Below are positions 1 to 1,879 of a DNA stretch of 64,000 nt, in pieces. Location of the stretch: assembly GCA_965112155.1 (NCBI GenBank), contig OZ218098.1; one strand, given 5' to 3'. The stretch comes from Podarcis liolepis. Lineage: Eukaryota. Position numbers and translations under genes: made by a program. Position 1 is the stretch's first letter. Every line of letters begins with the position of its first letter. Below the pieces are notes generated by a model. That model searched no databases. It was not told the DNA's origin and was given only the letters and a program-made list of their open reading frames with translations.

Positions 1-311
1 ACACATGAGTTATGAAACCCATTAAATGGAAAGCTGAGCAGGCTAACCCAAATTAAGGTTGTGGTCCTACACATATACTTAGTTGTAAGCCCCATTGACT
101 TTAATAGGACTCATTGCTGTAAAAGTATGACCAGGACTGTAGGCAATTCAAGTCTAAGATTTCACGTGCCAGCAAATAAAATGCTCCGGTGTTAATATAT
201 TGTTAGCTGCTATACCAGCATTTTAAAATAACAAGAAGTGCATTGCAAGTTCATAAAAATGGCCTTGTATGTAGATGAGTCTATATGAGTGGGTCTTATG
301 GAGAAACCATG

Positions 312-1138
312 TGTCAGGGGCTTAGGGACAGAGACACAGGGGAGAGAGGAAATGGAGAGCGAAGGGGAAGAATCTGAGGGCAGCGTAGGGGAGTATGACA
401 GTGACCCGAGAGATTCCATGAGCTTCTCCAGCGAATCAGAAGATTCCCAGAAGGAGGCGCCGATGGTCAGGGCAAGGGGGGTCCCAGGGGAGACACACCA
501 GAAACAAGGGGCCAGCGGGGACTCCCAAAGCAGCAGCGGGAGATCAGGACCAGCTTCCCCACCAGAGCGTAGTGGGGGGGAGAGTCCCATGTGTCAGGGC
601 CAGCGTCTCCTCCAGCAGGGGGAGAAGATGAGTCAGGACTGACCACGCCTCTATCGGAGAGCGGGGGAACGGAGGGGAGGTCGGGTCCAGCTAGCCCCCC
701 CCCCGAAGGGGGAAGCAGTGACAGGAGCAGTGTAACGGTCAGGAGGAAGGTTGCCGGCTGGGCGCACGCGCCAAGTTCAAATGTACAGGCGCGCGGGACA
801 GCAGAAAACCCGGATTGGGAACCAGGTCCTAAAGCCCGCCGGAGGCAGGGGGAAGATTCAGGGGACTCAGCGTCAGAAGAGTCTAGGAAGGGCGGGACCC
901 CAGCTGACAGGCGGACCCAGAGGAAGAGAGAGCAAAGGAAGAGGTGGAGCAAGGCTAGAGTCTTAAACTGGTGTCTGGGGGGAGGAGATTCAGACGGAGC
1001 TTCGGCGGTCTAGAGTTTCAGACGTAGAGCTGCGCGCTGCGGCTGTGGAAGTGAAACTGAACTTCAATAAAGACTTTTGTATATAACAACGAACTGGCAT
1101 TGGTCCTTTGTGAGCTGGGACCTCGGGCAGCTCTGACA
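312..1138 (+). mobile_element. Solo LTR, probably Gypsy/Ty3-type, 827 bp
   Basis: Ends TGTCAG...CTGACA. 5-bp TSD CCATG at 307-311 and 1139-1143. AATAAA at 1066-1071. CpG-rich, so probably young. Confidence 0.85.
352..1013 (+). pseudogene. LTR-internal ORF (~220 aa; acidic N-terminus, SGPASPP repeats, basic C-terminus) with a 1-nt frameshift in the G7 run at 574-580
   Basis: ORFs 289..642 and 591..1013 join if one G is added at 574-580. ATG at 352, TAG at 1011-1013. Confidence 0.55.
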
Positions 1139-1879
1139 CCATGTATTATGTGTCTGTTTGGTTTTTGTGTACCATTGTGAGCAGCACTCAAAGCTCTAGC
1201 TTTTTGCAAGCACAGAGAGAACGATCTGTGCCAAGTTTGGTGTGTGACATCTGCATCTGCACAATCAACTCCATGCATGGCAGGGAAGGAAAAGTCAATG
1301 CAACCTGACCAAAAATGCTGCTGCTACGCACCAGAGAGACCCATGAGAATTGGCTCCGAGTTGCAAGACTTTTCGATTCAAGTGTTGTTCGAGGAACTTC
1401 ATGCTGAGCATTCAAAGCATCTTTCAAGGGTAATGAAAAACTAGGTGTGGGTTCAGTCAAGGCTTTGGTTGATTGGCTGTGTGTTTCTCTGTTCTGGCGA
1501 GAGCAGAATAGGAAGCTGGAGTGAGGACTGGCAGGCAGCCAAACCTCGTCTTCAGCAGTGATATAATTACTAATAATGACCTCAAGCCCAGTCAGCTAGT
1601 TAAATGGCTTTTCAGGACAGGCACCAACTTAAAGTCTGGTTTATAGACAGGATAAACTGAATCTTTGGGGTACATGAAAACTGTTGTGCTTAGGTCCTCC
1701 TCAGCTGTGGTCCAGGAGAGATATCAACATTCTCAGGCTACAAGGCCAACTATATATTTAAGATTAAATTTAAATCGTTGCTATTAAAACATTTAATTAG
1801 AAAGCAACTTAAAAATTCTTAAAATGTGCACATATGTATGTCTGTGTCCAAGAGATTTAGAAAATGGGTTTATAACCCT

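Follow-up and report, generated by a model that had tools for sequence, protein, structure and literature searches.

The DNA stretch analyzed here (the window) comprises 64,000 nucleotides of Podarcis liolepis and contains, close to its start, a solo LTR. Re-reading of the letters bore out an 827 bp TGTC...GACA element at 312–1138 with a 5 bp target-site duplication (TSD) on both sides, the parts of which are collected in Table 1. The empty site was seen in a public DNA run, with a joint from 305 to 1138 at which 832 bases are skipped, corresponding to the LTR plus one TSD, and the insertion is therefore recent or polymorphic among these lizards. The LTR family is large; an own-genome search gave 2037 candidates at first look, of which 40 were scored and 30 fetched, with 96–97% identity to the window LTR and, in nearly all of the 30, a TSD of their own. 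All counts given below rest on single natural copies, without a family-level consensus sequence.

A preliminary description, made from the letters of the window, had proposed that this LTR carries an accessory gene read from ATG 352 to the TAG at 1011–1013, provided that a single G is added to a G7 run at 574–580, and followed by AATAAA at 1066. Each of these landmarks is present in the sequence, and the peptide is of low complexity with a basic end, as described. There is indeed one break in the frame of the window copy, and it lies in that purine run, between repeats 1 and 2; however, the repair to G8 is not supported, since none of 22 unbroken copies has G8 and 21 of the 22 have G7 like the window. 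These 22, out of the 30 fetched LTRs of the window's own subfamily, hold an unbroken frame of at least 216 aa from the same ATG. Nor does the frame start at ATG 352, being open already at the second base of the LTR, with VRGLGTETQGREE upstream of the Met; in 3' LTRs it is open from far upstream, and in sister subfamilies this ATG is replaced.

The three codings of the SGPASPP repeat, at 544, 594 and 681, read codon for codon as first written, and in the window all differences between them are synonymous. The argument for coding drawn from this is partly circular because the repeats were picked by identical translation, and the third repeat reads SGPASPP in only 13 of the 30 own-subfamily copies (SGPASLP in 16), while sister subfamilies hold one SGPASPP repeat only. 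Stop-free plus-strand runs of at least 146 codons, the length of the window's longer piece, arose in 750 of 3000 dinucleotide shuffles of 312–1010, and runs of at least 232 codons in 28 of 3000. As the shuffles reach 146 codons in 25% of cases, the window by itself is weak evidence of coding; it is the comparison between subfamilies that establishes, at the level of sequence, the coding status of the LTR.

Table 1. Features of the solo LTR and its borders (positions in the window)
Feature	Position	Strand	Basis or remark
Left target-site duplication CCATG	307..311		Sequence; empty site in a public DNA run
Solo LTR, Ty3/Gypsy retrotransposon with chromodomain-bearing pol	312..1138	+	Own-genome copies and full-length elements
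LTR-coded end of the pol frame, ~232 codons + TAG	313..1013	+	Joins integrase–chromodomain in 3' LTRs; one break in the window copy
ATG of the preliminary description, an internal Met of the tail	352..354	+	Present in the window's subfamily, absent from sister subfamilies
Antisense stop-free frame, 180 codons	467..1009	-	Third codon positions common with the sense frame; read as its shadow
SGPASPP repeat 1	544..564	+	Common to sister subfamilies
Purine run holding the frame break of the window copy	574..583	+	G7 in the window copy, as in 21 of 22 unbroken copies
SGPASPP repeat 2	594..614	+	Specific to the window's subfamily
Repeat 3	681..701	+	Inside a 63-nt in-frame gap of sister LTRs
Basic stretch RRTQRKREQRKRW	909..947	+	Lies where the tail is most conserved (block dN/dS 0.14)
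TATA-like TCTTAAA	961..967	+	~30 nt upstream of the predicted start; within codons V-L-N
11-mer AGACGGAGCTT	992..1002	+	Exact complement of the PBS in full-length copies; predicted to act as self-primer and to mark the transcription start (U3/R border)
pol stop codon TAG	1011..1013	+	Ends 21 nt after the first base of the self-primer
Poly(A) signal AATAAA	1066..1071	+	Sequence
Right target-site duplication CCATG	1139..1143		Sequence

The full-length element and the end of its pol frame

One LTR match was the 5' LTR of a 6.7 kb element. Classification through full-length elements, as the preliminary description had advised, places the family in Ty3/Gypsy: gag and then PR–RT–RNase H–integrase lie between two TG...CA LTRs, with a PPT, 5 bp TSDs and no env, for which there is no room because pol runs into the 3' LTR. 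The best PDB match to the element was Ty3 Gag-Pol (E 1.5e-137), and the named relatives are Podarcis proteins, in agreement with the lizard origin that had been suggested. Domains recognized by Pfam were Retrotrans_gag, zf-CCHC, PR, RT, RNase H, integrase, SH3_Tf2-1 and a weak Chromo; the Chromo match (E 0.05) is below the cut-off, and the region aligns with relatives carrying PF00385, with the cage aromatics replaced. The tail after the chromodomain is ~360 aa long, of which 210–232 aa are LTR-coded. Neither the LTR peptide nor the antisense frame has a Pfam match, and an ESM Atlas search gave no usable match. AlphaFold models of chromodomain plus tail (10 sequences) had a mean pLDDT of 39 with even the chromodomain unfolded, and hence carry no structural information.

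The sequences of full-length copies indicate that the LTR frame is, in all likelihood, the last ~230 codons of pol, past integrase and chromodomain, and not a separate gene. Eighteen of 150 matches to the LTR peptide of a sister subfamily lie in a 1557-aa open frame, one insertion being repeated on several contigs among these matches. In nine of 21 stretches examined, which were chosen partly for long frames, a single open frame covers RT, integrase and chromodomain and ends at a stop within the 3' LTR (position 631 of ~756; in the window's subfamily, 670 of 795); four were out of phase at the junction and the remainder were broken elsewhere or unusable. In an unbiased set of 30 young sister-subfamily copies, picked by internal DNA only and including two pairs with a common flank, the PPT was crossed in frame in all 30 and the frame from the chromodomain to the LTR stop was unbroken in 25. 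Furthermore, a UniRef protein of Podarcis muralis (A0A670KNJ5; 1498 aa, RT to integrase) ends in the LTR peptide with 56% identity. No Met inside the LTR part is common to the families, and four of 12 elements have none. Thus, neither a frame split from pol nor a conserved start of its own was found, as would mark a stand-alone LTR gene, and the proposed accessory gene is not supported: in full-length copies the frame runs on from pol, P. muralis Pol proteins end in the LTR peptide and there is no shared Met.

The counter-evidence comes from the window's own, older subfamily. Only one of 30 3' junctions there was unbroken from the chromodomain to the LTR stop, and four of 30 were seen to cross the PPT in frame; the 30 junctions represent 24 independent insertions after merging of shared flanks. 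This set is older than the young sister set (mean identity 93.9% versus 99.8%), and the G runs before the PPT show 12 length patterns versus one. Assembly error is disfavoured because the G runs are invariant in the young set, and the loss of junctions fits decay after insertion, judging from the sequences. Four independent insertions (L080, L081, L086 and the L082 group) form one clade in which the PPT junction is out of phase; its members may have multiplied with no fused tail, or with help in trans. Within this clade (L080, L081, L086, L082–L084 and L088–L090; contig C20), six loci represent one duplicated insertion, five with the middle of the LTR deleted.

Selection on the LTR-coded tail

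In eight pairs formed from five elements of four subfamilies, the dN/dS of the LTR part was 0.20–0.30 over 200–210 codons (Nei–Gojobori); the pairs share elements and are not independent, and the bootstrap upper bounds were 0.28–0.62. The same pairs gave 0.00–0.11 in RNase H, the integrase core and the chromodomain, and the portion of the tail before the LTR gave 0.20–0.71. The dS of the LTR part was close to that of the pol core. The chromodomain of this family is without the aromatic residues seen in relatives, yet it is conserved like the integrase core (0.05–0.11). DNA-guided alignments contained 74–87 third-position versus 29–50 first- or second-position differences. Gaps inside the frame were of 3, 3, 30 and 63 nt, and gaps of 1–2 nt fell at or after the stop; one gap of 1 nt inside the frame occurred, in the 5' LTR of one element (L167). 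The values of dN/dS, the third-position excess and the in-frame gaps together uphold the earlier view that the LTR is protein-coding under amino-acid constraint.

Each 40-column block of the tail had a dN/dS of 0.14–0.36. The last 32 codons, which coincide in part with the TATA-like box and the primer, were the most conserved (0.14); conservation of the L-x-W-C end, which overlaps the TATA-like box, may be partly at the DNA level. The other frames of the LTR gave 0.57–2.33 with stops, except for the antisense frame, which had 0–1 stops and values of 0.26–0.48, above the sense value in all eight pairs.

Relatives, signals and chromosomal location

Other families of the same genome have RTs that are 63–72% identical and LTRs of 410–483 nt, and one, at 57%, has a 623-nt LTR. 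An LTR pair was present in 11 of 13 stretches of these distant families, and all 11 have their pol stop well inside the 3' LTR. The dN/dS of the LTR part was 0.17–0.45 (seven pairs), the tails end basic (...RRR-x-x-VK-x-LLCW) and GTG stands in place of the in-frame ATG codon of the PPT. Across families, the LTR-coded extent is 110–232 codons and the U3 length ranges from ~300 to 680 nt. In an RT tree built without named references for Tf1 or sushi-ichi, the window's family and these distant families grouped with Anolis and Gekko proteins in a squamate clade of 22 rows (100/99), which fell among fungal-type chromodomain elements, apart from the plant rows. The Anolis proteins extend ~95–135 aa past a G-D-S-V-M motif that resembles the PPT–LTR junction and, read from the proteins alone, may correspond to it. 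Two Anolis proteins (P0113 and P0115) are relatives without a chromodomain in which a long acidic tail is kept after the junction-like motif. Of the chromodomain-bearing relatives, 46 of 77 end less than 45 aa after the chromodomain, and fungal-type relatives end within 25 aa of it.

In full-length copies, the PBS (GTAAGCTCCGTCT) includes an 11-mer exactly complementary to window positions 992–1002, and the two pair in a predicted fold. A PBS complementary to an LTR 11-mer is linked to self-priming in Tf1, Tj1 and the Tf1/sushi group (PMC4600332, PMC6317226). Because such a complement is a sign of self-priming, the transcription start is predicted at ~992, ~30 nt after TCTTAAA, and U3 is predicted to span 312–991; TCTTAAA would then be used both as promoter and as codons. 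In 12 of 14 elements, the distance from the start of the PBS complement to the end of the stop codon is 21 or 24 nt. One element scored as a miss among the 14 (L246) has a 9-nt complement located 24 nt before the stop, and in the 623-nt-LTR family the stop lies 43 nt before the primer start. Since the predicted start is downstream of nearly the whole frame, the promoter of a solo LTR would not transcribe it. At the gag end, seven of eight elements have a stem-loop and a GGGAAAC in the −1 register, a putative −1 frameshift site by analogy with sushi/PEG10.

Copies of the family crowd the ends of chromosome-size contigs. Within 1 Mb of the ends lay 14 of 29 young internal matches, 38 of 98 sister LTR matches and 32 of 130 own-subfamily matches, both ends being alike, against an expectation of 2.6%; the Copia control had four of 66 there and the distant Gypsy families six of 45. 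These counts are of best-scoring matches, not of all copies, with C20 and small contigs excluded. The enrichment was 10–19 times for the window's family, and a young Copia family was not clearly enriched. Subtelomeric duplication is an unlikely source, judging from 28 sister flanks, among which only two pairs were shared, both on the excluded C20; among the matches to the sister LTR peptide, one insertion does recur on several contigs. The chromodomain, the tail or retention could each explain the end bias. Internal sequences of Gypsy and Copia elements are in large excess on contig C20 (40 Mb), which also carries duplicated insertions and by analogy might be a W chromosome. A cluster of family copies is located at C8:89978750-89986031, where tandem elements apparently share an LTR, and near one contig end four LTRs of three subfamilies lie within 10 kb.

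In four RNA runs, the element was thinly covered in both directions and the LTR ~5–10 times deeper, with reads mapping to many copies. None of ~4000 RNA reads of these runs, which were of low depth, mapped to multiple copies and possibly came from a relative, joined the internal region to the LTR, and a sequencing-run search for the element listed no RNA run as containing it. Because the reads are on both strands, are multi-copy and share a species label only, these runs show neither tail expression nor a start site. At the window LTR, two runs (X23 and X24) gave reads of high depth mostly in one direction and with one dominant unique flank, probably a host transcript through a single solo LTR and likely antisense to it.

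Interpretation and comparison with known systems

The explanation favoured here, and held as a whole with considerable confidence, is that the solo LTR is a remnant of a lizard Ty3/Gypsy element whose pol frame crosses the PPT and the LTR to 1011–1013, the tail likely being a disordered end of integrase with import or tethering signals. Transcription would start from ~992 in a self-priming element as in Tf1, and protein code would then span the whole of U3 (312–991), the TATA-like box with it. Only the 3' LTR copy, read on full-length RNA, would yield the tail, and ribosomes would first have to shift by −1 at G GGA AAC, where gag ends; a solo LTR such as that of the window would yield none. 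The acidic Ser/Pro-rich part is a putative phosphorylatable linker. The basic C-terminal block, in which 909–947 is a putative NLS or chromatin contact, may serve in the import or tethering of the integration complex and might thereby favour insertion at chromosome ends. As the tail has no Pfam match, its job is read from composition and analogy, and whether it stays on integrase and acts in nuclear import or tethering would seem evenly balanced. The more far-reaching proposal, in which the whole U3 would code for an integrase tail directing insertion towards chromosome ends, as a vertebrate counterpart of the LTR-coded, centromere-targeting CR motif of plants, and would have replaced the cage-less chromodomain in that role, is tentative and unlikely.

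A separate accessory protein, made from ATG 352 or from the in-frame ATG within the PPT on a spliced or subgenomic RNA, would agree with the 22 of 30 own-subfamily LTRs that keep a 216–220-aa ATG frame despite pol junctions that are, for the most part, out of phase. However, young copies have no stop between pol and the LTR frame, no Met of the LTR part is common to the families or even present in four of 12 elements, the PPT codon is GTG in distant families, and the predicted start lies at 992, with no internal-to-LTR joint among the ~4000 reads, albeit at low depth and possibly from a relative; such a protein is highly improbable. A short 3' UTR can avoid nonsense-mediated decay, and the frame may instead have been kept open mainly for the RNA, with ~55 nt of 3' UTR to the poly(A) signal allowing escape from decay and the peptide hardly mattering. 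The stop is tied to the U3/R border (+21 or +24) despite a U3 of ~300 to 680 nt, as this explanation would have it, whereas stop avoidance alone would leave dN/dS near 1 and not at the 0.14–0.36 per block and 0.17–0.45 in distant families that were observed. An RNA role of this kind is improbable as the main cause, and avoidance of decay may act in addition to selection on the peptide.

The near absence of stops from the antisense frame and its dN/dS of 0.26–0.48, the 146-codon runs in a quarter of the shuffles and the mostly one-direction, likely antisense RNA reads of two runs might point to 467–1009 as the selected product, or to an open frame that is a by-product of G/A-rich composition. 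An antisense gene was rejected, since its third positions are shared with the sense frame and its dN/dS is the higher in all eight pairs; in addition, only the sense frame joins pol, runs of 232 codons arose in 28 of 3000 shuffles and the reads, with one dominant flank, are those of a host transcript, so that either version is scarcely credible. The tail could also be made with Pol and then cut off by the element protease as a small protein, for example an anti-silencing factor or a particle component. Its ~360 aa after the chromodomain, against less than 45 aa in 46 of 77 chromodomain-bearing relatives, and the different constraint on the pre-LTR part (0.20–0.71) and the LTR part (0.20–0.30) speak for release, but no cleavage site is known and plant CRM tails are described as part of integrase (PMC3059260); a cleaved tail is considered unlikely.

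The favoured layout, in which pol ends in the 3' LTR, has a precedent in plant CRM elements, which extend pol into the 3' LTR (PMC3059260, PMC3605345). CRM group A (CR motif/CHDCR) shares with the lizard element this extension and a non-random chromosomal location. The lizard element differs in its vertebrate host, in a PBS of the self-priming type and not tRNA-Met, and in a conventional chromodomain-like region kept upstream of the PPT where CRM has the CR motif instead; moreover, its frame fills all of the predicted U3 (110–232 codons) and ends just inside R, its copies crowd both chromosome ends and its tail has no Pfam match. The literature found, which excluded Repbase and subscription journals, described the layout for plants only and not for vertebrates, and an earlier vertebrate description is possible. 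The layout itself is known from plants, and the lizard LTR is a case that differs in detail, not a new gene.

With the Tf1/sushi group (Tf1, Tj1, sushi-ichi, V-clade), the lizard element shares the PR–RT–RH–IN order followed by a probable chromodomain, SH3_Tf2-1 and an LTR-complementary PBS, as well as the TGT...ACA LTR ends given as a group feature (PMC3601003). GGGAAAC is a frameshift site in sushi/PEG10 and is present in the lizard element too. It differs in the long tail after the chromodomain, most of it LTR-coded, and in replacement of the cage aromatics of relatives (Y..., W-x-G-Y). Ser-Pro low-complexity C-termini for import or chromatin-factor binding are found in the Ty5 integrase targeting domain and the C-terminal NLS region of Ty1 integrase, and Ty5 inserts in telomeric silent chromatin. 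These are Ty1/Copia elements with tails that are not LTR-coded, and they are likened to the lizard tail by composition and role, not by sequence. MMTV sag and HIV nef likewise have protein-coding sequence within U3; each of these is a gene in its own right, with a start codon and spliced RNAs of its own, whereas the lizard frame is the end of pol.

On this evidence, a vertebrate retrotransposon lineage would have a promoter region that is protein code at the same time. Each solo LTR, with thousands of candidate matches, would be a copy of an integrase tail, and LTR evolution would be tied to protein constraint. The annotation split between 'LTR' and 'internal' sequence loses 110–230 Pol residues, and LTR ORFs get called orphan genes, such as Podarcis 'hypothetical proteins'. 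If the tail sets the chromosome-end bias, it would be a natural targeting module in a vertebrate, testable as an isolated peptide. In another Gypsy family of this genome (L256, 7032–7362), with LTRs that are 99.8% alike, a single gag-pol frame of 1558 aa ends in an LTR-coded RRSAR[LI] motif. Anolis proteins also end in RRSAR[LI], which resembles the nucleosome-binding core of HMGN proteins.
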